Below are positions 4,511 through 47,238 of a DNA stretch of 64,000 bases, one piece after another. Under the pieces are notes generated by a model. That model did no database searches and had not been told where the DNA came from. It was given only the letters and a program-made list of their open reading frames with translations. The position numbers were made by a program, and so were the translations under genes. Source of the stretch: Schmidtea polychroa (lineage: Eukaryota); NCBI GenBank assembly GCA_044892525.1, contig CM097885.1, positions 14,200,001-14,264,000 on the forward strand. The letters are read 5' to 3'. Within the stretch, counting starts at the first letter, position 1, and each line of letters starts with the position of its first letter.

Positions 4511-4799
4511 ATTTAGTTGGTGACTGTGCTGTTCGTGATCCTTATGGTTATTATCACACGTTTGTTGTTATTATTATCATAATTAATTTAATTTCAAAAA
4601 CAAAATATTGTCAAGAAAGAATTAAAAAATAATGATAGCAGGATTAAATTTAATAATGTAGAACCTTTATATAATAAAATTTGTAATTTTAAAAAGTTTC
4701 CTTTAAATAATTTTAAATGTTATAGTTATTTTATTGCTGATCGATCTTTAATAAATAATAATAATAATCCTAAGAATCAAGAAGAGTATAATGAAATTA

Positions 4800-7187
4800 A
4801 AGAAGCTGAATATAATAATAAAATAGTAAATGAAAAAGTTTATAGATTTATTAAAAAGGCAGAAGATAAATTAGAGAGAAATGAAATTGGGTGGATTAAT
4901 AAAATATCAGAGGAGCAAAATATTTTCACTAAAGATGAATGGAAACGACCGATACTGAGTTATGACAAAATGCAATATAAACCGAGTACAACTCTAGAAA
5001 TTCAGAGCTATAGAGTGGAATGCTTACTAGATACAGAAGCAAGAGTAAATGTAATGGCAGAAGCAGTTGTGGACAAATTAGTGAATGTGAAAATCATAAA
5101 AACAGATAAGATGTTAAGATGTGCAAATGATAGTAAATTAGAGACAATCGGAAAAATACATTTTGAAGTTAGAATTGGTAATATGGAAAGAAAAATAACA
5201 TTTATAATAGTTAAAAATAATGTTCCAGATATAATAGGCGGAGTGGAGTTGCAGAAAGAGTTTGGAATTGAATTAAACTACATCAAGCAAAATGAAGAAG
5301 GATATAATGAATTTGTGTGTGAAATAGTAGCTAGATTTGATGAAAGGATTACAGATAACGAGAGATGTCAAAAAGTAATAGAAATTCTAAGATTAAATGA
5401 AGATAAAAGACTGTTAGAGATTGTTGAAAACAATAAAAGCGTTTTTATGGCTAATAACTGGGATATTGGATGTACTGATTTAATTGCACATAAAATCATC
5501 ACAAAAGAAGGGCCAATTATGATAAAACCCAGAAGACAACCCATCAATTTAGAGGAGAAAATAAATGCTGCTATAAAAAATTTAGAAAATAATGATAACA
5601 TAAGAAGATGTAATTCACCTTGGAATACGCCGTTAGTATGCGTGTGAAAAAAAGACAAAAAAGATATCAGACTTTGTTTAGATTTTAGAGCTTAATAAGA
5701 TTACTGAAAGACAAGCTTTTCCTATGCCGAATGTAGAAGAAATTCTAGATACATTACATGGATCTAAGTACTTTAGTTCTATAGACCTTGGGAACGCTTA
5801 TTATTAGGTGAAATTGGACATAGAATCGCAAGAAAAGACAGGATTTTCCACTAAAGAAGGGCAATTTTGTTTTAATAGAATGCCTTTTGGCATTGCGGCG
5901 ACACCGGGTACATTCCAAGAGTTAATGATAAAAATATTGAAAGATCTATGGAAAGAAGGAGTTATGGTGTATTTAGACGATATTTTAATTTTTACAAGAA
6001 CAATTGAAGAACATTGAAATGTGTTTGGAAAAGTTCTAGAGAAAATAAGGGAATCTAAACTGAGAATCAACCCAGAAAAATGTCAGTTATTAAAGAGCGA
6101 AGTAAAGTTTTTAGGACACATTATTAACATTCAGGGGATTCGGACAGATCAAAGTAAAATTGAGGCTATTAAAGAATTTGAGAAGCTTTTTAGGTATATG
6201 TAACTATTATCTGAGATTTATTAAGGAATATGCAACAAAATCAAGAGCGCTAGAAAGCATATGTGGAAGCAATAGTGAAAAATTAATCTGGACTGAGGAA
6301 TGTGAGAAAGCTTTTGAAGAAATGAAAATGGCGTTGACTACAGCGCCAATTCTCGTATTTCCAGATTTCAAGAAAGAATTCATATTAGATACAGACGCAA
6401 GCTTTGATACAATTGGAGCTGTATTATCACAAAGAGATGAAATGGAGCATGAACACGTTATTGCATATGGATCCCATGCAATTAGTAGCCATGAAAGAGG
6501 ATATTATATAACACGAAAAGAGCTTTTGGCTATATATTATTTCTGTCACCATTTCAACCATTATTTATACGGTAAACGGTTTGTTTTGCGCACTGATCAT
6601 AAAGCAATAACTTTTATGTTAACGACAAAGAAGCCGATAACAGCACAGTTCCAAACGTGGATAAATTACTTGAGCAGTTTAGACATAAAAATGGAGTTCA
6701 GAAAAGGTACGGCGCATACGAATGCAGATATGCTGTCTAGAAATACATGCGGCAAATGTGTACAATGTTTGATGGACCATTATAACCCCAAATCAGGGCG
6801 ATTAAAAACTAGATTGTTAACATTGATGACCGAAAATAATGGAAATGAATGGCAAAAAGATAATGCAGAAATACAAGAAATAAAAGATCAAATAAATGAA
6901 AGGAAAAATAATAAATATATTTTAAAAGGAAATATTATTTATACCAATCAAAACAAAATATGGATACCAGAAACAAAAAGACGAGAAATGATTAAGGAAA
7001 CACATTTATTATTATGCCACGCAGGAGTAGAAAAAGTTATGAAATATATTAGGAACAATTTTGATATGGAAGATTTGCTAAATGAAGTAAAAGAGACTAT
7101 TTCAATATGTGAAACAAAGTTTTAACTACAAAGTCAAAAGAAAAAACCCAAGTAATTCAAGCTTCAGAACCCATGGAGAAAATATAC

Positions 7188-7190
<3 letters not shown>
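4800..7190 (+). mobile_element. degenerate Ty3/Gypsy pol (protease, RT, RNase H, integrase N-terminus)
   Basis: LLDTEA protease site (DTG degraded); SPWNTP, RMPFG and YLDD RT motifs; FILDTDAS, ELLAI and TDHKA RNase H motifs; HLLLCH integrase zinc motif. Several stops and frameshifts; ends at a (TTA)n tract. Confidence 0.93.
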
Positions 7191-8070: not shown

Positions 8071-8699
8071 ATGGGAATACTTTTCAGTAGATTATACAAA
8101 TTGCTAAACGAGTTATCTCAATCTGATCCTCGGAGAATCCTAATGTTGGGATTGGATGCTGCTGGTAAAACCACAATTCTATACAAATTGAAACTCAATG
8201 AAACTGTGACAACGATTCCAACAATCGGATTCAATGTGGAGGAAGTTTCAATTGGGAAAGGTTTGAAATTCACAATTTGGGATGTGGGAGGTCAAGAGAA
8301 GATTCGACGGTTATGGAGACATTACTATACAAATTGCCATGGATTGATTTATGTAGTGGACAGCAATGATGTGGAAAGGTTGAAGGAATCAAGAGATGAA
8401 TTATTTACGATTGCTAAATGTGACGAGATGAGAAATGTAAATCTAGATTTGATAGGAAATTGAAATGTTTAACATTGATTCAGATTCCAATAGTGGTGAT
8501 TGCAAACAAACAAGATTTACCAAATGCCATGTCACCAAGTAGAATTGTGGAAGGGTTAGAATTATCGAAACTGGAGCGCACTCACAAATGGCATCTGCAG
8601 GCATGTTGTGCAGTTTCCGGTGATGGACTGTACGAGGCATTGGAAGCAGCAGGGAAATTATCATCAGAATACTTGAAGAGTTGTAAATCATTTCGGTAG
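8071..8699 (+). CDS. ARF/ARL-family small GTPase, 193 aa; exons 8071-8436 and 8484-8699
   Basis: MG start, [30 protein letters not shown] and CA motifs. A 47 nt phase-0 GT-AG intron joins the two ORFs in frame. CCAAT and TATAAA upstream, AATAAA downstream. Confidence 0.93.
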
Positions 8700-13627: not shown

Positions 13628-14502
13628 GTTCGTAATCAGTTAGTATAAAAATTGAACACAATAAAAAATTATTATTTAATATCTGCAACTAAATGAAATT
13701 AAACAATTAAAAGAAAATAACAAAAGAAAATTTAACTAAAAATTTTATTGCATATTAAATTTAATCATCTAGTAAAATTACTACAACAATAAAAAATAAA
13801 TTACCAAATCCACGTGGGCATAAAATCGAAAACTGAGAGCTTCACTGTCTACAACTAAATTTTGATGTTAGAGAAAAAGTAGTTTTTTTAAATGAATTTG
13901 TGATCAGTATTTATACTGATTTTTCATGCATTTGCTGCCACTCTATCCAATCAGAGTGCGAGAAATTTTTAATTAGTCTTGCATACCTGCATGAGTGTGT
14001 GCAATTGTTTATTTGTTTTAATTCAATAAATTTAATTAATTTCTTATTTAATTTTTATTAATTTTAATTTTATAAATAATTTGAGTTATATTAATTTTTA
14101 TTAATTTAAAAATTTTTATTCTTTAAATTTAATAAGTTAAATAACCATTTAATTCTATAAACTTTACAATTTATATAATGCTAACTAATTTTATTATTTT
14201 TGACGATTTAATTTTTATATTGTTTAAATAATTTTCAACTAATTCTATTTTATATTTTATTATTTTTCTATTTAAATTTTTAAGTGTTGAATTTTTTGTT
14301 AAATTTATTTATCTCTTATTCTATTATACGGGGTTTATTGGTTCTTAATGTGTGATGTAATTTATTTCATTTATTTTAAATTAAACCTTGGTCATAAATT
14401 TTCCAACTTTGCGGTTTTTGTGTTAGGTATTTTCGATCGATTAAAACAAACTCTCAGTTCTCGGCTTTAGCCCAACAGTACACTTTCTCCCGGGATACGA
14501 AC
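13628..14502. mobile_element. possible non-autonomous TIR element
   Basis: CGTTCGTA / TACGAACG ends and an imperfect inverted pair at ~13815-13841 and ~14448-14476 around an AT-rich core. Confidence 0.35.
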
Positions 14503-14539
14503 GAAATTGAATATTATAAGATAACGCCAATCAAACATT

Positions 14540-15032
14540 TTTTTCACGATTAATTTCGACAGTTTTCCTGTCATCATCAGGTGGGATATAATACTCATTA
14601 AATAAAGGATTTTAAACAAATTTAATTATATATAAAAAATTTTTATTTTATAAAAAATATTATTTTTTAAAAACTTTAACATTTAAAATTTAATTTAATA
14701 ATTTAAAAATTTAAAAATTTTTTATTAATTATTTAATTTAACACAACAATCAATACATACAATACACAAAAGCTTATTTAAAAACACTCAACACACAAGT
14801 ATTTACAGCATTCTGCACATTAATTTTCGGATTCAATGATTTTATCAACAACGCCTCACAAATCACACGTTCCCAATAATTATCGAAGTTTTTTAATAAA
14901 ATTTTAAAATCAGACATACCTATTTTAATCTTACAGCCCTTATTGTGCTCATCAATATGGGTCAAAGACTTCGGTATACAATATTCTCGAGCTCGAATAC
15001 AGAGATGACGGGAAGTCTCTCCAATGTATGTG
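14540..15032 (-). mobile_element. 3' portion of a Penelope-like element (GIY-YIG endonuclease C-terminal half plus pLTR)
   Basis: YIGETSRHLCIRARE at ~14985-15030, then HIDEH..DFKIL..ICEALLIKSLNPKINVQ, with a hammerhead motif downstream. Cut off at 15033 by the Polinton A terminus. Confidence 0.88.
14545..14583 (-). ncRNA. minimal type I hammerhead ribozyme
   Basis: Minus strand cac-CTGATGA-t-gacag-gaaaa-ctgtc-GAAA-ttaa-TC-gtg: stem I cac/gtg, 5 bp stem II, palindromic stem III, AUC cleavage triplet. Confidence 0.8.
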
Positions 15033-15139
15033 AGTAGAAGGATTGGAGCCCGCTAGACCAGGAGCCCGCTGGACCACATATACCCACCCCCCCGACCGGA
15101 AAATTTTTTAAAAATTTTCTAAGTCTAAAAGTACATTTT

Positions 15140-15387
15140 TTTTCAAGGTCAAATTTTAAACAAAGACATATGACTCATCAAGGTCACTTAAACAAAGACC
15201 ACGACTCATCAATACCATTCTCAAGGTCATATGACTCATCGTGATGACTCATCAACAAAGACCACGACTCATCAATACCATTCTCAAGGTCATATGACTC
15301 ATCGTGATGACTCATCAACAAAGGCCATGACTCATCAATACCATTCTCAAGGTCATATGACTCATTGTGATGACTCATCAAGGTCAT
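15140..15387 (+). promoter_or_regulatory. 63 bp tandem repeat (x3 plus partials) dense in ATGACTCAT and TCAAGGTCA motifs
   Basis: Units start at 15193, 15256 and 15319. 8 x ATGACTCAT and 6 x TCAAGGTCA, bracketed by a perfect 21 bp inverted repeat (15057-15077 / 15443-15463). Regulatory role is inferred. Confidence 0.6.
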
Positions 15388-15743
15388 ATTATTATTTTTA
15401 AAAAATATTATTATTTTATTATTATTATTCAAAATATTATTAGTGGTCCAGCGGGCTCCTGGTTTTCGTTTGCCCAAAAGTTGTCGTTCCAATCATTTTA
15501 TTTCATCGTTTGATAGCTCATTTTAAAGCTTAGTGCAAGACCTTTCGAATGAGCTATTGAAGGTATCATCATCATTAATATTGACAAAGTTATTATCGTT
15601 TTCCCGAGACCATTTTCAAGGTCATATAATTATTATTAGTATTAGTATTAATCTATATACTCCGAGTTTATCCGACAAAATATTTTGTCCCCCCTATGGG
15701 TAATGCTCACAAGGGTACTGCTCGCGCTCAACAACTCGCAATG

Positions 15744-15785
<42 letters not shown>

Positions 15786-15936
15786 GTTTTAGCACACACT
15801 CATTATACCAATATGAATTTAGTTTTCATGGTGTATCAAATCAAAACTCCTATTTTTATAGTATATCAACCAATCAGAACATATGTTATTTCAGTAGTAA
15901 TATAAATAAAGCAGTATATTAAAAATTATTATAAAA

Positions 15937-16465
15937 ATGTCTCAATTTAGTGAAAATGTTCTAAACGGAATTGTCACCGCGAATATAGTCGACAGCCTCA
16001 ATTTCCTGATCAATCGAACTGAACAAATCATTGAAGGTGAACATATCGATTATCAGCAAATGATGGAGATAGAATCCCTGGAAACCAAGAAGTATTACTT
16101 CAATAGAATATTTCAGTGTCTTTTCGATAAAGACATGAAATGGACAAGGATAATTGTAGGATTCACCTACATGAAGATAATCATTGCAAAAGGTCAACAT
16201 GACTCAGAACATTATTATCAGTGGTCTTTAGAAGTAAGATTTCTTTTATAATCTACATATATATTTTAATAATATTCATTTCTAGATAATCAAGTCCAAG
16301 TTTACCCCATGGATAGAAGCCAATGGCGGATGGGGTGTATTAAATAAACTGGCCTGCAATTTTAAAGAAACTGATGAAATCAAAAGAAAAATGAAAAACT
16401 ATATAAAACTTACAACTGGAGTTGTTATAATGTATATTTTCTGTAGATATATGAATAAAAATTAA
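15937..16465 (+). CDS. Bcl-2-family protein, 158 aa; exons 15937-16233 and 16286-16465
   Basis: BH1-like LFDKDMKWTRIIVGF in exon 1. After a 52 nt phase-0 GTAAG..TAG intron, exon 2 gives BH2 WIEANGGW and a hydrophobic C-terminal tail (LTTGVVIMYIFC). Confidence 0.8.
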
Positions 16466-16509
16466 TGTTATTGTTTTTAATAGTATATTTAAATGAAAAT
16501 AATTCAATT

Positions 16510-16844
16510 TTAAAATTTATTAACACATTCGCAATCATCATCTCCACATTTCATTATATTTTCAACGACATGATCAATACAATCATTCGTAATATTATCT
16601 TTAGGTTCCTCTATAGGTTCATAGATTTCGTCATCAATTTCTTGAGTTTCTTCCTCATCATCAAATCCTGTATCTTGACTCTCAACTACCCAGCCCATAT
16701 TTAATGCATTTGTAACAGATAATATATCCTCAATTTTTACCCCAGATATTTCAGCTAATTTTGCCAACAAAAAGTTGATTACAAATTCTAAATAATAAAT
16801 AATTTGGAAATTAATTAATCATGTTAACCTTTTTCTGCAGACAT
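16510..16844 (-). CDS. small acidic hypothetical protein (~97 aa); exons 16844-16829 and 16787-16510
   Basis: A 41 nt GT-AG intron joins MSAEK-E to FVINFLLAKLAE..; D/E-rich. Confidence 0.6.
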
Positions 16845-16976
16845 TATTAACACTTTAAAACTATATTATAAGTTTGTTTATAGATTTTCTTTGTTAAATT
16901 TGCATGTCATTTGCATTTATGTTGCAATTAATAAAGAGAAAAACAAATCTGACTAATACATTTATTAAATATAACA

Positions 16977-17387
16977 TTAAAATATTTGTGAAAGTCTAGC
17001 AGACATAATTTTCCAAATAGGAGAATATACATCATTATTATCAACTTTATATCCCTGGATTGCAATTGTTATATACCAATTTTCATTTTCTTTGAAACTG
17101 ATTTCATCAAAAGCATCATAAAATCTTGCATATCTATTGTTGAACCATGCATGTTGATTACACGATAGTTTCGAATCTATCCGTTTAAAAACATCATCAA
17201 TAGTTTTGACATCAATCATTGAAAGCGTGCCGGATAAGAATTGAAATTTAGTTGGAATTAGCTTGACTGGTGCAACCAATTTCATATTGATTTCTTCTTT
17301 CAAAAAATACATTTTGTAGTTGTGGAACATTTGAACTGGTTGTACCATTTCTTTAGGTTTTTCGGTGCTTGAAATTTTCTTAGTCAT
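16977..17387 (-). CDS. hypothetical protein, possible OB-fold ssDNA-binding protein
   Basis: Intact 136 aa ORF with upstream TATA and downstream AATAAA. The C-terminal WYITIAIQGYKV..YSPIWKIMSARL resembles T7 gp2.5-like viral SSB strands (inference). Confidence 0.55.
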   Translation of the reverse strand: MTKKISSTEKPKEMVQPVQMFHNYKMYFLKEEINMKLVAPVKLIPTKFQFLSGTLSMIDVKTIDDVFKRIDSKLSCNQHAWFNNRYARFYDAFDEISFKENENWYITIAIQGYKVDNNDVYSPIWKIMSARLSQIF

Positions 17388-17519
17388 CGTGAATAATGAA
17401 TAAATTTAAATGTTACAGGGTTTTTATACCATTGACTCATGCCTATCAACCAATCAGATTATAGCATGTCTTTGTTTAAATTGCATTCAAAATGCATTGA
17501 TGTTGCATTGTCACATGTT

Positions 17520-18296: not shown

Positions 18297-18372
18297 GTTG
18301 TTGTTGAATAAATGAATCCTAAACAAAAACCGTTTGTTTAAATCAATCAATAACCAATTAGAAATTAACCAA

Positions 18373-18810
18373 TTAGAAATCGACCAATGAAATTATCTCA
18401 TTTCGAACCTTGTCAACAAATTCTCTATACTCCAAATTTCTCAACCCCAACATGACAACCTTTCCACTAGCAAACACGTTGACACATATAGGGTTATATT
18501 TTAATAGTCTTAGTGCCGGAAACAATTCCGGTTCAAACATACAATCACATTTTTTCGACATGTTATATAGATTGATACTATGTCCCATATCCATAGTAAC
18601 GGTAATTGATTGGATTATAATATTATTTATTCGATATTGTAATTTATTAATATCCAAAGGTTTCTTACATCCCATGATTCGGCATTTACCAGTCTTGAAA
18701 AATATTATCGGATATTTCAGACTTCTATCGATAATTTGCTGGGGTTTCCCTGGTGGGAACCTCATATTCGATACATCAAAATTTCCTCGATAATTTATAT
18801 TTGCTAACAT
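18373..18810 (-). CDS. divergent TATA-binding protein (TBP) homologue, 145 aa
   Basis: Two TBP repeats: IIFFKTGKCRIMGCK, then IQSITVT, FEPELFPAL and VNVFASGKVVMLG (compare IFSSGKMVCTGAK, YEPELFPGL, IFVSGKVVLTG). Confidence 0.88.
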   Translation of the reverse strand: MLANINYRGNFDVSNMRFPPGKPQQIIDRSLKYPIIFFKTGKCRIMGCKKPLDINKLQYRINNIIIQSITVTMDMGHSINLYNMSKKCDCMFEPELFPALRLLKYNPICVNVFASGKVVMLGLRNLEYREFVDKVRNEIISLVDF

Positions 18811-18909
18811 TATTAAATCATTTATGAAAATTAGTCTTTATATATAAATTGAGCACGAGTTCATTAAATCATCGAATATAAACAAATACACATTTATAAA
18901 ATCTTTGAA

Positions 18910-19536
18910 ATGGAATTAAGAAATGATGCAGTATACCAAATCGTTGGTCCGAGTGGTAGTGGAAAAACATTATTTGTTTGTAAATTACTAAAATCAAATT
19001 TATTCAAATCAAAATTTAACAGGATTTATTGGCATAGGGGTGCTGATGAAGAACATGGATTAACTCAATCAAGTTTCTGTAAATTAAAAAACATGAAAAT
19101 AGTAAAGGGATTCGATAAAAACTGGTCCAGCCGATTAAAGAAAGGTGATGTCATTATTATCGATGATTTGTATCAAGAAGCTAATAAAGAAAAAGATTTT
19201 AATAATTTATTTCCAAAGATCAGCAGACATGTTGGTGTAACAGTTATTTTCATAACACAAAATCTATTTCATCAAGGTGGGGCACATCGAACACGTAATT
19301 TAAATGTACAATATTTAGTGATTTTCAAGAATCCTAGAGATGCAACAGTGATTGATTTTCTTGCACGTCAAGCATACCCTAACAATCGTAATTTTCTTAT
19401 CAGTGCATTTCAAGATGCTACAAAAATACCTCATGGATATATATTTCTTGATTTCACACAACAATGTCCCGATGATTTACGAGTAAAAACAGATATTTTC
19501 AACCCAAAAGGTGCCATGGTTTATAAACAAAGTTGA
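18910..19536 (+). CDS. A32/FtsK-like DNA packaging ATPase (Polinton A)
   Basis: Walker A GPSGSGKT, Walker B IIIDD, SRH, ITQNLF and FKNPRD motifs. Confidence 0.93.
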   Translation: MELRNDAVYQIVGPSGSGKTLFVCKLLKSNLFKSKFNRIYWHRGADEEHGLTQSSFCKLKNMKIVKGFDKNWSSRLKKGDVIIIDDLYQEANKEKDFNNLFPKISRHVGVTVIFITQNLFHQGGAHRTRNLNVQYLVIFKNPRDATVIDFLARQAYPNNRNFLISAFQDATKIPHGYIFLDFTQQCPDDLRVKTDIFNPKGAMVYKQS

Positions 19537-19554
19537 AAACCACTATGAATAATA

Positions 19555-20088
19555 ATGTTTCTAAAAGCAAGGGTGAAAAATATTAAGAAATTAAGAAAAG
19601 GTATTAGAAAGACTATTAAAGTTCCAAAAGTTCCACCAACAACTAGTTATACACCGTCTAAAAAACTTGTAACTGAAAATTTCTCTGCAATGAATCTTAT
19701 TTCGAAAAATCCTAAACCTAAACGTAAAACCCGTAAAACTCGTAAAACCGGTAAAAAAGTAGTTAAAAATCATCGCAGTTTTCCATTTTTTAATGCATTG
19801 TTAAAGGCCCCGAGTATGAAAAGAATGAATATATTGCAATCATTCCCAAATTTTGTTGTCGATGATTTACTCAATATTATACTTAAAGTAGTCAAAGGTA
19901 AAATTAAAATCAGTAAATCAAAAAAGCATTTATTGAGCAAACATAGGAAACCATTGTTATCTTTAGTAAATAATAAAAATCGTAAGCAAATGAGGAAAAT
20001 TATATATAAACAACAAGGTGGATTTATTGGTGCATTGATACCTCTGGCATTGTCATTATTAGGTGGAGTTGTAGGAAATCAATCATAA
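19555..20088 (+). CDS. basic core-like protein with a C-terminal amphipathic peptide
   Basis: Lys/Arg-rich; ends QQGG|FIGALIPLALSLLGGV, an adenain-type site before a hydrophobic helix. Confidence 0.75.
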   Translation: MFLKARVKNIKKLRKGIRKTIKVPKVPPTTSYTPSKKLVTENFSAMNLISKNPKPKRKTRKTRKTGKKVVKNHRSFPFFNALLKAPSMKRMNILQSFPNFVVDDLLNIILKVVKGKIKISKSKKHLLSKHRKPLLSLVNNKNRKQMRKIIYKQQGGFIGALIPLALSLLGGVVGNQS

Positions 20089-20149
20089 ACAATGGGTGCT
20101 AATCCTTCATTGCCCGACATTAAATTTAATTTTAAATCTTCTTGTTGTA

Positions 20150-21307
<1,158 letters not shown>

Positions 21308-22312
21308 ATTTTTATACTATTTTACCGAGCAATAGTTGCCCATTAATTCATCCAGACAATCAAGCCAGTAAATTCATGGTCAATCTCCAGAATCCGATTT
21401 CTTTAAATGGTGACTGGGAAGTTGCACTGCAAGATTTTACATTCGTCTACAACACTTTCCCATTTTATAGTCAATGTAAGATTGATTTCAAAAGGAATAT
21501 TGTGAAAACATGTAGCGGTATCTTTGTTATCAGTAATTATGATAAAACATATCATATTCCGAATCAAATATTAGATTCGCATTGCTATATGTTTTACAAG
21601 GATGGATTAAATATCAGTTGTGATTTTAAACCATTTACAATAACATTCGAAACTATTGAAGATGCCAAACGAATGGGTTGCAATAAGTTGAAAAATATTG
21701 TTACGGAGACCGAGTATTTATTACGTTTTAATCTATTTGAAGCAAACAGTGTAATGAAAGAAGAAATCAAAATATCTGTGTCGTATAATGGTGAAGTTGA
21801 AGAATCATTTACCTTTGCTGATGAATTATATTTTGATAAACTTGCTGATTTACTTAAATATTTAAAGTTCAATTGTTCACACATATTTAAAAATTTGGAA
21901 ATTGTGAAAGATTTGATGTTTACTTTTAGTTTGAATGAGGATATTTGCGAAGTTACATTTGATAAAAATTTGGCAAATTCACTTGGATTAGATAGGCAAA
22001 AATATCGAGAAAAATCGACTGGTATACGCAAACCAAGAATATTAGAACATCATCAACAAATGTTCATATATACTAACATTATCGAACCCATAATTGTTGG
22101 TGATTCCAGTGTTCCTCTTTTGAAATCGGTATGGATTGGAAAATATGAACATGATGAAGTTGTCAATATAAATATCGATAATCCCATGTATTTACCAATA
22201 GCAAGTTCATGTATAAAAAATATAGAAATAAATATTCGTGACGATAGTGGGAAACTTATAAACTTTCCAAAAGGTTCAAAAACTCATTTGACATTACATT
22301 TTCGTAAAATAA

Positions 22313-22669
22313 ATGGCTAATTCTGATATTATTAGTATGTATAGTGGTAGCCAATCTGGTGGTGAATTACCATATTTTATTGGTAAACAGTACGGATCAG
22401 GATGGTTGAGAACAATTGGTAGATTTGCCCTGCCTATTCTTAAACGTATTGGTAGTTTTGGTATGAAAACTGCAAAAGATGTTATTATGAATGAACAGAA
22501 AATTTTACCATCTCTAAAAACAAATGCTTTAGCTGAATTAGGGAAAGTTTTACCAGGGGTTGCAGGTATGTTTCAAAAAGATACGCCTCCAGCTCCAAAA
22601 CGTAAAAGACATGGGATATCACGTATAAACAAACGAATGAAAGGACATGGAACTATATTTGCAAAATGA
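22313..22669 (+). CDS. small Polinton virion protein (PW-like)
   Basis: QSGG..YFIGKQYGSGWLRTIGRFALPILK with a basic tail, located between penton and hexon. Confidence 0.75.
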   Translation: MANSDIISMYSGSQSGGELPYFIGKQYGSGWLRTIGRFALPILKRIGSFGMKTAKDVIMNEQKILPSLKTNALAELGKVLPGVAGMFQKDTPPAPKRKRHGISRINKRMKGHGTIFAK

Positions 22670-23889
22670 TTTGTGGTAAATCTGAATTATGTATATTTGA
22701 TAGACCATCGCCCCAGGCTGTAATAGAATTTGGGGCATTTGAGGAAGTTTTTCCTATGAATTCAATTACCGATAGTAGAAATGATATCGAGTTTTATATT
22801 AATGGTTCGCAAACTGAATATTTAGATTTGAACGATACTTTATTGACTGTTCAGATCAAGGTTGTAGATAAAGATAGAAAAGTTTTGGATGCCAATGCAG
22901 ATGTAATACCGAACAATTTCATGTTTCATACTCTGTTTAAAGATGCTGTGTTGGGATTTAATAATATCAAGATTGAGGGTGGAAATAATACATTCATTCA
23001 CAAGGCTTTGATAGAAACTATTTTAAATTACAATTCCGATACTAAAAATACCTGTCTTACACCTATGGGTTATGCAGCAACAGATGATGAAAGAAAAAAG
23101 TGGGTTAAAGGTTCAAAGGTTTTCACCATGTGCTCATCGTTACAACTTGATTTTATGGATCAACCGAAATATTTACTACCGGGAGTTAATGTACACATTA
23201 GATTGAAAAGGTCCGATTCTGCATTATCTCTTACTAGTGCAACTGGTGCACCAATATGTCAATTAGTTGATGCAAAATTATTGGTGAGAAGAGTCCGAGT
23301 GGACCCCTCAGTATTAGCTGGTCATCAATTGGGTCTTAATTCAAAACATGCAATTTATCCTTTAAAAACAAAGGAAATTGTACAATTCGCTATTGCTAAA
23401 GGTGCTTCATCATTCTATAAAGAACAAATATTTGGTGACAGAAGAATGCCTAATTTTATTCTGATAACATTTCAAAGTGAAGCACAATATAATGGATCTT
23501 ATACTGCGTCGAGCTCAATTTTCAAAAACTTTAATGTTACTTCATTGACTTTGTCGAAAAATACTGATTATAGAGAAACATATATTCAAGATTTCGAGAA
23601 TGACAATTACTGTGCGACATATATGCAGAGTATTGTTAGAAATCTGGGTTATTTAGATAAAAATTTGAATTGTGGAATTACTCTAGAAGATTTTAAAAGC
23701 AAATATCCATTTTTCACATATGTTTTAGCTCCGGATTTTGATTTAAATCAGAGTCAACTACCACAAAACGGGAATTTACGACTGGATATAAAGTTTGCAA
23801 AAGCTATTACTGAACCGGTACATGTTATAATATATGGAGTATTTGAAAACGAAGTTCAAATTACTGCAAATAGAACCGTGCTAGTATAA
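22666..23889 (+). CDS. major capsid protein (double jelly-roll), Polinton A
   Basis: KSELCIF, IEFYING..EYLDLNDT, DFMDQPKYLLPGV and GNLRLDIKF motifs; 407 aa. Confidence 0.9.
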   Translation: MICGKSELCIFDRPSPQAVIEFGAFEEVFPMNSITDSRNDIEFYINGSQTEYLDLNDTLLTVQIKVVDKDRKVLDANADVIPNNFMFHTLFKDAVLGFNNIKIEGGNNTFIHKALIETILNYNSDTKNTCLTPMGYAATDDERKKWVKGSKVFTMCSSLQLDFMDQPKYLLPGVNVHIRLKRSDSALSLTSATGAPICQLVDAKLLVRRVRVDPSVLAGHQLGLNSKHAIYPLKTKEIVQFAIAKGASSFYKEQIFGDRRMPNFILITFQSEAQYNGSYTASSSIFKNFNVTSLTLSKNTDYRETYIQDFENDNYCATYMQSIVRNLGYLDKNLNCGITLEDFKSKYPFFTYVLAPDFDLNQSQLPQNGNLRLDIKFAKAITEPVHVIIYGVFENEVQITANRTVLV

Positions 23890-24277
23890 ATGTATACAGA
23901 AACACAAAAAGTTGTCATGGAGTAAGTTGTTTTTTATACTCTGGATTTATTTAAGTAGTTCTGTTCAGGTTAATCGAATCGGAAAACAGATATTGGGAAA
24001 TGAATTTGTTGGAGTTTTTCCTCTTGATAAAATTCTATATTTGAGCAATAATCAAGCAATAATCGTCAATACTCAATCGTCTCATCTTGGTGGAGAACCT
24101 GGTAATATATTCGTGTTCGATCCTATGGGTTTTTATTACCCGGCTTTGTTGATATCAAAACTACAAACAATGGGGAAATCTATTGTGTATAATAAAACTA
24201 TGTTTCAAAATCCGTTGACCCAAACATGTGGTCAACATTGTTTAGCTTGGTTATTGTACAAAAAATTTGATGTTTAA
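23890..24277 (+). pseudogene. adenain-like cysteine protease with a probable 37 nt intron (23922-23958); catalytic His segment missing
   Basis: Spliced product reads MDSVQV..FVGVFPLD..IVNT..GGE[no HW]..FDPMG..FQ..CGQHCL. Confidence 0.8.
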
Positions 24278-24401: not shown

Positions 24402-24623
24402 AATATTATTATTTACAAAGTTTTATTATTAAATGCGTGATCAGTGCATAAAGAAAATGATTAATAACAAAGACAGTGCATGATCAGTGCATGTCAGATA
24501 AAGAAAAATAATGACTCGTGCATGTACAGCTCGTCTGTGATTGGCTGAGACCGGCGAGTATAATGTTTCTTTATAAACATTGACAAATCTCAAACCTTTC
24601 ACAATTTTTTCAAATTAATCAAA

Positions 24624-25096
24624 ATGGCTAACCGAAACAATATTTTGTCAACTGGTAATTTTATTATATTTATTTTATTTTATTTTATTTTAGATGTTTT
24701 CGATTGGTATGAAGTGACGGAGAACGATTCTATCTTAAATGTGGATAATATATTCGGTAAATTTAATATTTTAATTTTTATTAAATTAATTTTCTGTAGA
24801 ACCCATCGTTAGTATCGAGAATGGCTGCAATGATGATATTTTTATGGATTCACCATCGAGTAAATTTATTTTATTAAATTAATAAATTTAAAGAATGATC
24901 TAGGTGATTGTCAAATAATTGAAGATAATAATGCCATCGTTAGTATCGAGAATGGCTGCAATGATGATATTTTTATGGATTCACCATCGAGTAAATTTAT
25001 TTTATTAAATTAATAATTTAAAGAATGATTTAGGTGATTGTCAAATAATTGAAATTTCTGGAACGGCTGAAATAAATGAAATGGTGGAATCATTAA
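24624..25096 (+). CDS. micro-exon gene encoding an acidic protein, truncated by Polinton B
   Basis: Exons 24624-24654, 24694-24756, 24800-24859, 24904-24990 and 25034-25096. All introns are GT-AG, 39-44 nt and phase 1; the spliced frame is open. Confidence 0.7.
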
Positions 25097-28183: not shown

Positions 28184-29608
28184 ATGTCTCTAAATAAATA
28201 TTGGAGATGTGAAAGTTGTAATTGTCAAGTTACAAGACATCATAAAGCAAGTCATTTAAAAACTAAAAAACATACAGGAGGTGATCTAATTCCACGAGCT
28301 GGAGGCGATTTGCAATCTTCAAAAACAACATCTTCAATATTAAAACCTTTTACTACAGAAAAATATCCAGGTGAAAGACATTTATTTAAACACAACTATA
28401 CTGGACCAGGAACACGTCTAGATATTAGATTAGATGAAAATAATAATCCCAAACAAGGAGAAGAACCAATAAATAGAATTGATCAAGCAGCTTTAAAACA
28501 TGACATTGCATACAATTCAACAAATCTTAGAGATAGACATGTTGCAGATGTGAATTTAATACATGATTTAAATAGTATCCAAAATCCATCAACCCAAGAA
28601 AAGATTCAAAGAGCTCTAGTTAAATTAGCAATGAAAGGTAAGATTTTCATAGGCTTAGGACACAGTCCGATCACCATGGGTGCAAGACTTCCTAGGAAAG
28701 CAAAAGATGTTGCTTATAAAAAGATTATCGAACAAGCAGACATTGAAAGATCCCTTGAGAATATATCCAAGACTAGTTTACAAACCCCAACAGAATCAGA
28801 AATAAAATATGCAAAGGAATTACACCATGAATTTAGAAAAAATAAAAAATATTTAAAAGTTCAAGTACATGAAAAAGATCAAACATGGTCTGCAGATTTA
28901 GTCTTTATGCCCAAATCATCAGACCCTGAAAAATATAAAATAATTTTAACTGTAATAGATTTATATACAAGATTTGCTTTTGCAAGGTGTTTAGAAAATA
29001 AAACAGGATATTCTATTACAGAAGCATTTGAAAATATATTTGAAGAAAATCAAAGAATCCCAAAATATTTATGGTGTGATAAAGGAACAGAATTTTATAA
29101 CAAAGTTTTTACAAAGTTTTTAAATAAAAATGATATTAAATTATATTCAACAGAAAACGAAGGAAAAGCAGTCGTAGTTGAAAGATTAAATAGAACATTA
29201 AAAAATAAAATGTGGAAATATTTTACTGCTATTGGAAAACAAAAATGGAACAATGAATTGTTACAAAAGATTGTAAATGAATATAATAATGATGTACATA
29301 GTTCTATAAAATTAACACCTTTAAATGCTTCCATGAAGCCTGAAACCATTAAAGTGGTAAATATTGAAAATGATGTTATTGAAAAACCAAAGTTTAAAAT
29401 TGGTGACCGAGTAAGAATATTTAAATATAAAAATAAATTTGAAAAAGGATTCACAGCAAAATGGACAAATGAAATTTTTATTATAAATAAAATACATTAT
29501 ACAACTCCAATAACATATACCATCTTTGATTTAAATAATGAAAAAATATTAGGTAGATTTTATAATAATGAACTACAGAAAACAGATTTTTTAGTCGACA
29601 AGCCCTAA
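28184..29608 (+). CDS. zinc finger, parvovirus-type PLA2 and retroviral-like integrase fusion, 474 aa
   Basis: CESC..HLKTKKH zinc finger; YTGPG and DQAALKHDIAY PLA2 motifs; WSAD, WCDKGTEF and VERLNRTLK DDE motifs. Confidence 0.92.
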   Translation: MSLNKYWRCESCNCQVTRHHKASHLKTKKHTGGDLIPRAGGDLQSSKTTSSILKPFTTEKYPGERHLFKHNYTGPGTRLDIRLDENNNPKQGEEPINRIDQAALKHDIAYNSTNLRDRHVADVNLIHDLNSIQNPSTQEKIQRALVKLAMKGKIFIGLGHSPITMGARLPRKAKDVAYKKIIEQADIERSLENISKTSLQTPTESEIKYAKELHHEFRKNKKYLKVQVHEKDQTWSADLVFMPKSSDPEKYKIILTVIDLYTRFAFARCLENKTGYSITEAFENIFEENQRIPKYLWCDKGTEFYNKVFTKFLNKNDIKLYSTENEGKAVVVERLNRTLKNKMWKYFTAIGKQKWNNELLQKIVNEYNNDVHSSIKLTPLNASMKPETIKVVNIENDVIEKPKFKIGDRVRIFKYKNKFEKGFTAKWTNEIFIINKIHYTTPITYTIFDLNNEKILGRFYNNELQKTDFLVDKP

Positions 29609-31012: not shown

Positions 31013-31705
31013 ATGGTATATGAAGAAAGATTAGCACTTTTAAAAAAATTACAATCAGAACAAGATAAATATAATAAAAAAGATACAACTCAACATGCTG
31101 AATCTATAATATTAAATGAGGTAATAACACAACAACAGGGGCCAACAATTAAAGCTATAAAAGAGTTGGAAGATTTCAATGAGCAAGCAAAATTTAAAGA
31201 GTTAGAAGATAAAAAACAAAAAATAAAAGAACTAGAGTGGCAGGATAAAGAAAAAGAATCCAGTGAAAACCATTCTGAAAGTCATTCTGAAAGAAATCAA
31301 AGAAAACGCAGAAGAATTTCTAATGTGGAAGAAGAAGAAATGTTTTTAAAAACAAAAGCTCTTAAAGTTGATCCTAAAATTAGAGATGATTTACCTCCTT
31401 CAATTAGACCCACATTTAATACTAATACTGAAGGATATCAAATAATAACAATTAATAAACAAAACTTTACTTTATATTCAAATTCAGAAAATAAATCACG
31501 TATTCATTCACAAAATGTTTATAATAATGAATATTTAGACTTTGAATTTACAGATGATTTTTATAGATTACTTTGTGGATATTCTTCAGATGATGTTGAA
31601 GAAATTAAAAAATATTTAAATTTAATAAAATTAATAAGAGCTAGTTCTAAAGCAAAATATATTCAAGATTTAAAGAATTATTTAAATAAAAATGAAAAGG
31701 GTTAG
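31013..31705 (+). CDS. hypothetical Polinton protein, probably truncated by element C
   Basis: 230 aa ORF whose TAG stop is completed by the AG of the terminus at 31704. Confidence 0.65.
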   Translation: MVYEERLALLKKLQSEQDKYNKKDTTQHAESIILNEVITQQQGPTIKAIKELEDFNEQAKFKELEDKKQKIKELEWQDKEKESSENHSESHSERNQRKRRRISNVEEEEMFLKTKALKVDPKIRDDLPPSIRPTFNTNTEGYQIITINKQNFTLYSNSENKSRIHSQNVYNNEYLDFEFTDDFYRLLCGYSSDDVEEIKKYLNLIKLIRASSKAKYIQDLKNYLNKNEKG

Positions 31706-32049
31706 TAGGTAGTTAGTGGCCTACGGCAGCAATAGGGGGGGGGGGGGGGTAAAAATGTTGCAAACTTTTGATTGCATAACTTTTTCCGTAGACATTTTTT
31801 GATTACATAATTGTTGCTGTAATGCCCAATGTTTTCTGGGATTTTAAATACAAAATTTTTTTTTTTTTTTTTCAATAAACAAGCCAAGGATAAATATTAT
31901 TTGGGTGGGTCTCCTTGGTCCTGAGAATTTCAATAGAAAAAGGTAGTCTTCAATAAAAAAGCATGGATTTTTCACACTATAGTGAGGGGATCTTCTTGGT
32001 CATGAGAATTTCAATAGAAAAGGTGGTTTACATTAAAAAACGCATAGTA

Positions 32050-32650
32050 AATTTTTAAAATAAAGCAAATTATGGTCCTAAAAAATTAAATTAAAGTAAA
32101 TGATGGGTCTAAAAATTTAAGTAAATCAAGGTTCAGATTTATTTTTGAAATAAAGTAAATTATGGTCTAAATAAGTAAATTATGGGCTAAGATTTTTCAA
32201 TTAAAGTAAATAATGGTTCTAAAAAATTAAATTACAGTAAATTATGGTCCAAATTTTTAAATTAAAGTAAATTATGGTTCTTAAAAATTAAATTAAAGTA
32301 AATTATGGTCAAAATTTTTGAATTACAGTCCAAAAATTTAAATTAAAGTAAATTATGATCCAAATTTTTAAATTAAAGTAAATTAAAGTAAATAATGGTT
32401 CTAAAAAATTAAATTAAAGTAAATAATGGTCCTAAAAAATTAAATTACAGTAAATAATGGTCAAAAATTTTAAAATTAAAGTAAATTAAGGTTCTAAAAA
32501 TTAAATTAAAGTTAATTAAGGTCCAAATTTTAAAATTAAATAATCAATGGTAAAAAAAATTTAAATTAAAGTTAAATAAGTAAATTAAAGTAATATTTTT
32601 TAAATAAGTAAATTAAAGTAATGTAATAAGTAAATTAAAGTAAGATTTTA
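32050..32650. repeat. ~31 bp AT-rich minisatellite (AAATTAAAGTAAATTATGGTC core)
   Basis: More than 12 diverged units are visible. Confidence 0.9.
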
Positions 32651-32830
32651 AAATTTATTAACAAAAAGTTGAAGGTGTTTGAGAATTGAAATTTTTTAAT
32701 GGAAATTTTTATGAATTATTTTTTAAGTAATTTTTAATGGAAATTTTTAAGAATAATTTTCAATGATAATTTTAGATGGAAATTTTAATAGAATAATTTT
32801 TAAGATAATTTTTAATGAAAATTTTTATGA

Positions 32831-33030: not shown

Positions 33031-33680
33031 TTAGTCCTCATCGGACAAAATAACGTCATCGATATCGATGTCATCTTCTTCATTAAATTCTTCCTCATCT
33101 TCTCCATCATTTTCTCCATCATTTTCTCCAACATTTTCTGAAACATTTTCTGCAACAATTTCTCCAACATTTTCTCCAATATTTAATTCACTTAATCTTA
33201 CATGCCCATATGCAAGACTAGTATTTTTCCCCACCCAAACCCTTTTGTCATCTTTGTTAGTTAGTGCTATTTTTGTGTTTTTAATTGTAAAAATTTGATG
33301 ATTTTTGCTTGTTATTTTAGTCTGAGGAACCGAAAAAATCTGGTTAGTGTTATAACAATCGAGGTATGACTGATGTTTTATGTCACTACCTTTCAATGTT
33401 ACACCTTTAGCCTTTTTTGTTTCATCATCACCCAACAAGCTATAACATTTAGGTCTAAGAAAAACCCACTCCTTATATTTAAGACCTTTATTCTCGTCTT
33501 TGAACTTTCCAATGACTGAATCAAGGTTCTTGCTATATAAGGAATGACAACTATTGTAATTGGAAGTATCCAATAAATTATCTCGAATCATTGCAGGTAA
33601 AAGAACCTCAAGTTTGCAGTTAATGACTTCGAGGAAAAAAGAATCTGTATCACCAGCAACGATATTAATTTTACAATTAA
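33031..33680 (-). CDS. family B (protein-primed type) DNA polymerase, C-terminal part
   Basis: Frame is open to the gap: VAGDTDSFF, IGKFKDE, LRPKCYS, KAKGV and DDKR motifs, with an acidic tail. Confidence 0.92.
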
Positions 33681-34180
33681 NNNNNNNNNNNNNNNNNNNN
33701 NNNNNNNNNNNNNNNNNNNNNNNNNNNNNNNNNNNNNNNNNNNNNNNNNNNNNNNNNNNNNNNNNNNNNNNNNNNNNNNNNNNNNNNNNNNNNNNNNNNN
33801 NNNNNNNNNNNNNNNNNNNNNNNNNNNNNNNNNNNNNNNNNNNNNNNNNNNNNNNNNNNNNNNNNNNNNNNNNNNNNNNNNNNNNNNNNNNNNNNNNNNN
33901 NNNNNNNNNNNNNNNNNNNNNNNNNNNNNNNNNNNNNNNNNNNNNNNNNNNNNNNNNNNNNNNNNNNNNNNNNNNNNNNNNNNNNNNNNNNNNNNNNNNN
34001 NNNNNNNNNNNNNNNNNNNNNNNNNNNNNNNNNNNNNNNNNNNNNNNNNNNNNNNNNNNNNNNNNNNNNNNNNNNNNNNNNNNNNNNNNNNNNNNNNNNN
34101 NNNNNNNNNNNNNNNNNNNNNNNNNNNNNNNNNNNNNNNNNNNNNNNNNNNNNNNNNNNNNNNNNNNNNNNNNNNNNNNN
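33681..34180. other. assembly gap (500 N)
   Basis: Seen directly. Confidence 1.
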
Positions 34181-46527: not shown

Positions 46528-47238
46528 AGTAGAAGGATTGGAGCCCGCTAGACCAGGAGCCCGCTGGACCACATATACCCACCCCCCCGACCGGAAAATT
46601 TTTTAAAAATTTTCTAAGTCTAAAAGTACATTTTTTTTCAAGGTCAAATTTTAAACAAAGACATATGACTCATCAAGGTCACTTAAACAAAGACCACGAC
46701 TCATCAATACCATTCTCAAGGTCATATGACTCATCGTGATGACTCATCAACAAAGACCACGACTCATCAATACCATTCTCAAGGTCATATGACTCATCGT
46801 GATGACTCATCAACAAAGGCCATGACTCATCAATACCATTCTCAAGGTCATATGACTCATTGTGATGACTCATCAAGGTCATATTATTATTTTTAAAAAA
46901 TATTATTATTTTATTATTATTATTCAAAATATTATTAGTGGTCCAGCGGGCTCCTGGTTTTCGTTTGCCCAAAAGTTGTCGTTCCAATCATTTTATTTCA
47001 TCGTTTGATAGCTCATTTTAAAGCTTAGTGCAAGACCTTTCGAATGAGCTATTGAAGGTATCATCATCATTAATATTGACAAAGTTATTATCGTTTTCCC
47101 GAGACCATTTTCAAGGTCATATAATTATTATTAGTATTAGTATTAATCTATATACTCCGAGTTTATCCGACAAAATATTTTGTCCCCCCTATGGGTAATG
47201 CTCACAAGGGTACTGCTCGCGCTCAACAACTCGCAATG

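Follow-up and report, generated by a model that had tools for sequence, protein, structure and literature searches.

In a TBP-encoding Maverick/Polinton (Maverick A) of Schmidtea polychroa, the left terminal region contains a tandem array of three short motifs (15143–15386, + strand), and the sequence makes it on balance probable that this array is a cis-regulatory block, serving as a host-factor enhancer for the early genes of the element. The sites predicted within it suggest an early-gene switch that would be run by host factors. All coordinates are those of the window, the whole stretch of 64,000 nucleotides that was analysed.

The left end of Maverick A

What remains of a Penelope-like gene for a GIY-YIG endonuclease, its C-terminal part (14777–15032, − strand), is target DNA outside the element and was cut by the Maverick insertion. 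The frame 14777–15052 (− strand) shows 91% identity over 80 amino acids to P0003 and is related to P0004 and P0005, homologues which carry GIY-YIG or reverse-transcriptase (RVT_1) domains. The homology ends at 15031, the preceding part of all three homologues being missing from the remnant, and a search of the first 34.3 kb did not recover this missing part. The hexamer AGTAGA (15033–15038, + strand), which agrees with the (AGT)2 end motif at five of six positions, starts at most two bases from the last intact homologous codon and marks the left terminus of Maverick A. In vertebrate Mavericks the ends are (AGT)2 or (AG)3 and the terminal inverted repeats (TIRs) measure 46–1447 bp (PMC8097293). 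From the gene break at 15031 and the AGTAGA at 15033, the array is therefore placed 110–353 bp inside the left end.

Another candidate Maverick end, with the sequence AGTAGG, served for comparison (31704–32670, + strand). It truncates ORF 31013–31705, which ends around 70 residues before its two homologues do, with AGTAGG starting at 31704. With 21 copies of AGTAG in 33,680 bp, this pentamer is expected to coincide with a gene break at about 0.002 per three-position junction. The terminal position proposed for the array in the preliminary description is thus borne out by the end mapped at 15033 and is backed by AGTAG at the second broken gene. At this second end, which sits inside a gene of the neighbouring Maverick, a run of G is followed by a different array, of 31-bp units, without any of the three motifs. 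Tandem arrays at element ends, each family with its own motifs, may be a general feature of this genome. The 31-bp array at 31704–32670 contains AAAGTAAAT, a forkhead-like site, ten times.

The window contains the left end of Maverick A alone, and the right end and the rest of the target gene lie outside it; from this one locus we infer that the left end is continuous with the Maverick A genes.

Gene content of Maverick A

The core of Maverick A (18373–23889) encodes a TBP-like protein (− strand), an A32-type ATPase, an rve integrase with a chromodomain and a double-jelly-roll-like capsid protein. The integrase (20165–21304) matched PF00665 with E = 1.3e-5, below the cut-off, and Chromo with E = 3.3e-4, and the A32-type packaging ATPase matched PF04665 with E = 8e-7, above the cut-off. 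The capsid protein gave no match in a direct Pfam search; it scored 0.98 in the Atlas against clusters with PF21738 on 15% of their members, and it is 21% identical over 315 amino acids (E = 0.015) to the PF21738 protein of the neighbouring element. The integrase, the ATPase, the double-jelly-roll-like capsid and the AGT-type end agree with the earlier assignment of the element as a Polinton (Maverick-like). The integrase gene also holds an in-frame TAT microsatellite of 46 copies (20539–20677), and further long TAT or AAT runs are found at 7188, 7710, 15745, 17521, 24341 and 32831.

No polymerase ORF of Maverick A was identified within the window, the sole lead being a putative small-exon start at 24624. 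In the segment 24624–25053 a 131-bp tandem duplication comes after this putative gene start, and the element appears to break off near here. By its motifs, the frame 23885–24277 presumably resembles an adenain-like cysteine protease; a Pfam search with it gave no match. A C-terminal fragment that runs into the assembly gap (33031–33680, − strand) is likewise, by its motifs, presumably protein-primed polymerase-like, and it had no match in Pfam or the PDB.

The gene downstream of the array (15937–16465, + strand) is Bcl-2-like, as the preliminary description had stated, with two exons joined by putative splicing. Its first part, 15937–16251, matched the Pfam Bcl-2 family PF00452 with E = 0.0023, below the cut-off, and an Atlas cluster with a score of 0.91, Bcl-2 being annotated on 46% of the cluster members. 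The exon 2 frame, from around 16286, contains an NGGWG stretch and a hydrophobic tail, and alone it had no Pfam match. The distance from the end of the array to the ATG at 15937 is 551 bp, in agreement with the earlier figure of about 550 bp. Bcl2 homologues are known cargo of adintoviruses (PMC8502044).

Anatomy of the motif array

The array holds six copies of TCAAGGTCA, eight of TGACTCA (with two further CGACTCA) and four of AACAAAG, and 138 of the 244 bases of the motif span lie inside these three motifs. Exact matches to ATGACTCAT start at 15170, 15231, 15244, 15294, 15307, 15327, 15357 and 15370, and those to TCAAGGTCA at 15143, 15178, 15221, 15284, 15347 and 15378, all on the + strand; eight and six sites within about 250 bp had been reported before, and the exact counts are the same. 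The third motif, AACAAAG(AC), had been missed. By their consensus, TGACTCA is a predicted AP-1 site, TCAAGGTCA a predicted NR5A/ERR-type site and AACAAAG a predicted Sox/TCF-like (HMG-box) site. Three of the AP-1-type sites have an extended 13-bp form, TGATGACTCATCA, and palindromic cores are found as three copies of TGATGACTCATCA and three of GTCATATGAC.

Part of this structure is a young 63-bp higher-order repeat of 3.0 copies (15191–15381, + strand) with sub-units of 20, 30 and 13 bp, for which TRF gave a period of 63, 3.0 copies and 97% matches. The first two copies do not differ from each other, and the third departs from them at three of 63 positions. Seven of the eight AP-1-type and three of the six NR5A-type sites lie wholly within the triplication, so the earlier derivation of the motifs from a 63-bp unit holds for the repeat itself and leaves one AP-1-type and three NR5A-type sites outside it. 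When the array is cut at GACTCAT, sub-units of 45 and 31 bp are obtained, followed by 30, 13 and 20 bp repeated. Its left edge consists of two older modules of 32–36 bp with the order TCAAGGTCA, AACAAAG, TGACTCA, and this is the oldest unit discernible in the array. Compared with each other, the old modules differ by one 3-base gap, one 1-base gap and three substitutions, and a motif is affected by one of these alone. The non-consensus CGACTCA occupies two of the ten AP-1 positions.

A seventh TCAAGGTCA begins at 15616 on the + strand, beyond the array, within a segment (15609–15627, + strand) in which 18 of 19 bases are those of the array module. Because of this match, 15464–15745 is regarded as part of the same element. 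TCAAGGTCA is intact in all seven copies, across five different flank combinations.

Since most motif copies are young identical duplicates, the eight and six sites cannot be read as 14 independent events. In 2000 dinucleotide shuffles of 15057–15463 the maxima were two AP-1 motifs and one TCAAGGTCA, under a null model that ignores tandem amplification. One 33-bp module holding both the AP-1 and the NR5A motif has a chance of about 1e-6; when repeats are taken into account and 30–100 motif families are allowed for, the chance of the motif pair becomes 3e-4 to 8e-3 per module and that of the motif triple 7e-5 to 6e-3, and counting 10–20 arrays lifts the upper figure to about 0.1. These repeat-aware odds are modest because recent slippage made most of the motif copies. 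The estimates suggest clustering above repeat-aware chance and are not decisive.

Recurrence of the array motifs upstream of other reading frames

Five copies of AACAAAGAC are present in the 33.7-kb unit, three of them in the array and two upstream of frames of Maverick A. Both outside copies lie no more than 160 bp upstream of an element ATG and are oriented in the sense of the downstream frame. The first belongs to the upstream region (17423–17482, − strand) of a 136-amino-acid ORF (16977–17387, − strand; ATG 17387), in which AACAAAGAC is found at −89, CCAAT at −68, TGAGTCA at −52 and TATAAA at −41. This AACAAAGAC forms part of 15 bp identical to the first module of the array, and when the array was compared with 106 other 300-bp windows the best match was this upstream region (score 32, the next being 27). 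The second belongs to the upstream region (24466–24577, + strand) of the putative small-exon gene with ATG 24624, possibly a polymerase leader, in which AACAAAGAC is at −158, ATGACTCG at about −112, CCAAT (reverse) at −85 and TATAAA at −52.

An AP-1-like site and CCAAT are present within 80 bp of both outside copies, and the cluster of AACAAAGAC, an AP-1-like site and CCAAT was found at two of 13 starts in Maverick A and at none of eight other starts (21 examined). Two such clusters appeared in none of 1500 order-2 and none of 1500 order-4 simulations, in a post hoc test whose patterns, namely the 9-base length and the TGACTCG variant, had been picked after the sequence was seen. Taken by itself, AACAAAGAC reaches two outside copies too often for this to be notable (81 of 1500 and 69 of 1500 simulations), and five of 42 comparable 9-mers of the array recur twice or more. 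Outside the terminal region there is no excess of AP-1-like sites, four being observed against 3.9 (order 2) or 1.9 (order 4) expected. Because a motif of the array recurs together with AP-1-like, CCAAT and TATA elements upstream of two frames, the regulatory role gains support from within the element. The regulatory role proposed in the preliminary description gains modest support from these two upstream regions and finds no counterpart in a wider excess of AP-1-like sites.

All seven copies of TCAAGGTCA are located within 600 bp of the end and none is in a promoter. The putative proximal promoter of the Bcl-2-like gene (15864–15910, + strand) has CCAAT at −67 and TATAAA at −36, and in the 200 bp upstream of its ATG neither AP-1 nor AACAAAGAC was found, only CCAAT and TATA. 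Its CCAAT box has 15 bp exactly in common with 17444–17458. A CCAAT-containing 15-bp unit is also repeated 2.5 times at 18351–18388, upstream of a 124-amino-acid ORF (− strand). The occurrence of CCAAT at 18351–18388, 15864 and 17444 suggests NF-Y-type promoters for accessory genes. Within the Bcl-2-like exon, at 16190–16206, AAGGTCA and TGACTCA stand three bases apart, the sole such composite outside the array; a derivation of the array from this exon was rejected, since 149 of 500 shuffles scored equally well.

Alternative explanations

A perfect inverted repeat of exactly 21 bp (15057–15077 and 15443–15463) encloses the array, as had been described. Its left arm is included in two direct copies of a G+C-rich 16-mer (15045–15077, + strand), which start at 15045 and 15061, and a third, inverted copy of the 16-mer is found in the right arm (15443–15463, − strand). 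The repeat is internal to the element and is not its terminal inverted repeat, and no target-site duplication of 2–10 bp was found for three choices of ends around it. An Rfam search returned three matches, every one far below its gathering score.

The terminal array could instead be an auxiliary origin or a packaging signal, bound by host factors or by an element-encoded protein, and we consider this unlikely; an enhancer role may coexist with it. A terminal position fits the two readings equally well. In the course of strand-displacement copying, folding or binding may then involve the three 16-mers and the 21-bp inverted repeat. The position of the array, 110–353 bp from the end, falls inside the 46–1447 bp range of Maverick TIRs (PMC8097293) and is consistent with such a role, as are the confinement of TCAAGGTCA to the element end, away from any promoter, the palindromic cores GTCATATGAC and TGATGACTCATCA in three copies each, and the tandem array at the second element end. 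The single strand forms the 21-bp stem with z = −6.1 against 100 shuffles, a value which is implied by the repeat itself. However, in adenovirus the replication motifs are found no further than 88 bases from the end (PMC6410123), nearer than this array, and promoter-like positions remote from any end carry two of the array's three motifs again.

Neutral amplification, for which we see a small probability, would mean that one module taken from a promoter was duplicated to a place near the end and then multiplied by slippage, in this copy or its sub-lineage, the high number of sites being without function. In its favour, two of the three 63-bp copies are identical, slippage between shared motifs can create new motif junctions, slippage products are numerous both in the element and in the one next to it, with 87 TRF rows in the window, and two of the ten AP-1 positions are occupied by the non-consensus CGACTCA. 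Against this reading, 138 of 244 bases are covered by three canonical motifs, the two gaps and three substitutions between the old modules touch a motif once, and the chance estimate is below 0.01 per module.

Invertebrate HINE-like repeats may have CAAGGTCA-rich cores, and an imperfect inverted repeat near the array, with arms of 16 bp around a 13-nt spacer (15513–15557), is presumably of a type familiar from invertebrate non-autonomous repeats. A MITE or a Helentron-type HINE with a tandem-repeat core, inserted 12–24 bp inside the Maverick end and carrying the motifs as its cargo, was first suspected beside the Polinton and lost ground once the left flank mapped the array inside the Maverick end; it is now very improbable. 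Inverted repeats around a microsatellite-like stretch with central tandem repeats do resemble the HINE plan (PMC4067079, PMC7492417), and TT precedes 15045 while T's follow 15463. However, the target-site duplication of a MITE is missing, the partner of the left arm is a direct and not an inverted copy, unlike in HINEs (PMC4067079, PMC7492417), and instead of a HINE 3' palindrome or a stable hairpin just outside the arms only weak folds of −2.4 to −4.4 kcal/mol were found beside them. The module moreover recurs past the right arm at 15609–15627 and has 15 bases in common with a promoter-like region in the interior of the Maverick. CAAGGTCA has no occurrence in the text of PMC7492417.

Duplicated block, searches for relatives and remaining features

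A block of 29.8 kb is present twice in the window (2686–32509 and 34181–64000) with 99.95% identity, a gap of 500 N (33681–34180) lying between the copies, and the differences are almost all in microsatellite length. The doubling is likely to stem either from the assembly or from a tandem duplication of very recent date. The identical second copy of the terminus and the array (46528–46958, + strand) is not independent, because it is inside this block.

Exact 20-base patterns had no matches in metagenome, viral and prokaryote genome collections, and no relative came up in scans for related loci that used the TBP-like protein, the capsid-like protein and the ATPase as queries. A 19-base composite was present once each in four viral contigs and was set aside as chance, there being no similarity beyond 19–21 bases. 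Among the 24 sequencing runs listed, 20 contain some part of 14400–17400, six runs from two studies contain half or more of its words, and none is an RNA run.

Elsewhere in the window, a TRAF-like gene (RING, zf-TRAF and MATH) is found at 527–1840, a Gypsy-like pol fragment at 4592–7125 and an Arf-family gene at 8071–8699. The segment 11333–12551, which had no Pfam match, is a probable hAT-like transposase fragment. In element B, a phospholipase-A2-like domain and an rve integrase are joined in one reading frame (28184–29608).

Comparison with known systems

Both tandem enhancers and viral ends that bear host-factor sites are known from other systems, and the surprise is limited because host sites in a viral end are a well-known design. 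In the SV40 72-bp repeats, the cytomegalovirus immediate-early enhancer and the repeats of LTR U3 regions, tandem repeats have been shown experimentally to be enhancers, and in such viral and retroviral enhancers modules of AP-1 and other host sites are tandemly duplicated upstream of the first-expressed genes. The array has the same tandem-module design, whereas its activity is predicted from sequence and its carrier is a Maverick. Adenovirus has a Bcl-2-like early gene, E1B-19K.

With Mavericks/Polintons of the adintovirus type (PMC8097293, PMC8502044), Maverick A shares an AG(T)-type end, a terminal non-coding region of around 900 bp before the first gene, the rve integrase, the A32-type ATPase, the double-jelly-roll-like capsid and the Bcl2-like accessory gene; it differs in that the window holds its left end only and no identified polymerase gene. 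In the parts of PMC8097293 and PMC8502044 that treat the ends, these are given by length and a 6-bp motif, with no transcription-factor array. The adenovirus ITR, with NF-I and NF-III/Oct-1 sites (PMC6410123), is similar in placing host-factor-type sites at the end of a linear element of the protein-primed lineage and in a possible double role in replication and transcription, a bidirectional transcription role being named in the title of a work cited in PMC6410123. The array differs in its motifs, in its tandem amplification and in its distance of 110–353 bp from the end, as against 88 bases or less, so that the two may work alike without the array being a member of that class; it belongs to an integrated element.

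In the C. elegans eri-6/7 Polinton_CE_TIR (PMC11414722), Polinton terminal DNA likewise carries putative transcription-factor sites, whereas these are described there as 'additional' putative sites in host-co-opted direct repeats, and the available text gives no multi-motif tandem array. The HINE/DINE-1 non-autonomous Helentrons (PMC4067079, PMC7492417) share microsatellite-like DNA set between inverted repeats, along with central tandem repeats, and the array region differs from them in the lack of a 3' hairpin beside the arm, the direct partner copy and the module common to Maverick upstream regions. In the literature listings covered, mainly of open-access papers and their main texts, no description of a factor array at a Maverick end was found, the nearest being the 'additional' putative sites in the Polinton-derived repeats of C. 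elegans (PMC11414722).

A model for the activation of Maverick A

If the array is an enhancer, a promoter-type module of 32–36 bp (TCAAGGTCA, AACAAAG, TGACTCA) would have been amplified by slippage into a homotypic cluster, to which host bZIP, HMG-box and monomeric nuclear-receptor proteins, named here from the consensus of their sites, would bind. The bound host factors would switch on the first, host-polymerase-dependent genes, which would be the Bcl-2-like gene 551 bp away, the 136-amino-acid ORF and perhaps the polymerase, and the anti-apoptotic product would keep the cell alive during copying of the element.

A bolder version of this model, to which we assign a low probability, is that a Maverick lineage senses injury or stress in a defined cell lineage through a terminal array of AP-1, HMG-box and NR5A-type sites, switching on the anti-apoptotic gene and the polymerase and then, through the TBP-like protein, the capsid genes, and that its copies have scattered injury-responsive enhancers in the genome of a regenerating flatworm. 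In planarians, wounding induces both fos-1 and jun-1 (PMC5515462), early in Hydra regeneration a Maverick falls into one cluster with Jun, Fos and creb (PMC13465017), and the planarian Burro elements carry BCL2-like motifs (PMC6431247). These findings make a link to wounding plausible, and none of them concerns this element.

In conclusion, how and when the Mavericks/Polintons of animals are activated is largely an open question, and the mapped end with its three-motif array provides a concrete candidate for host input. If the array is indeed a sensor of injury or stress, animal Mavericks would gain a named activation trigger.
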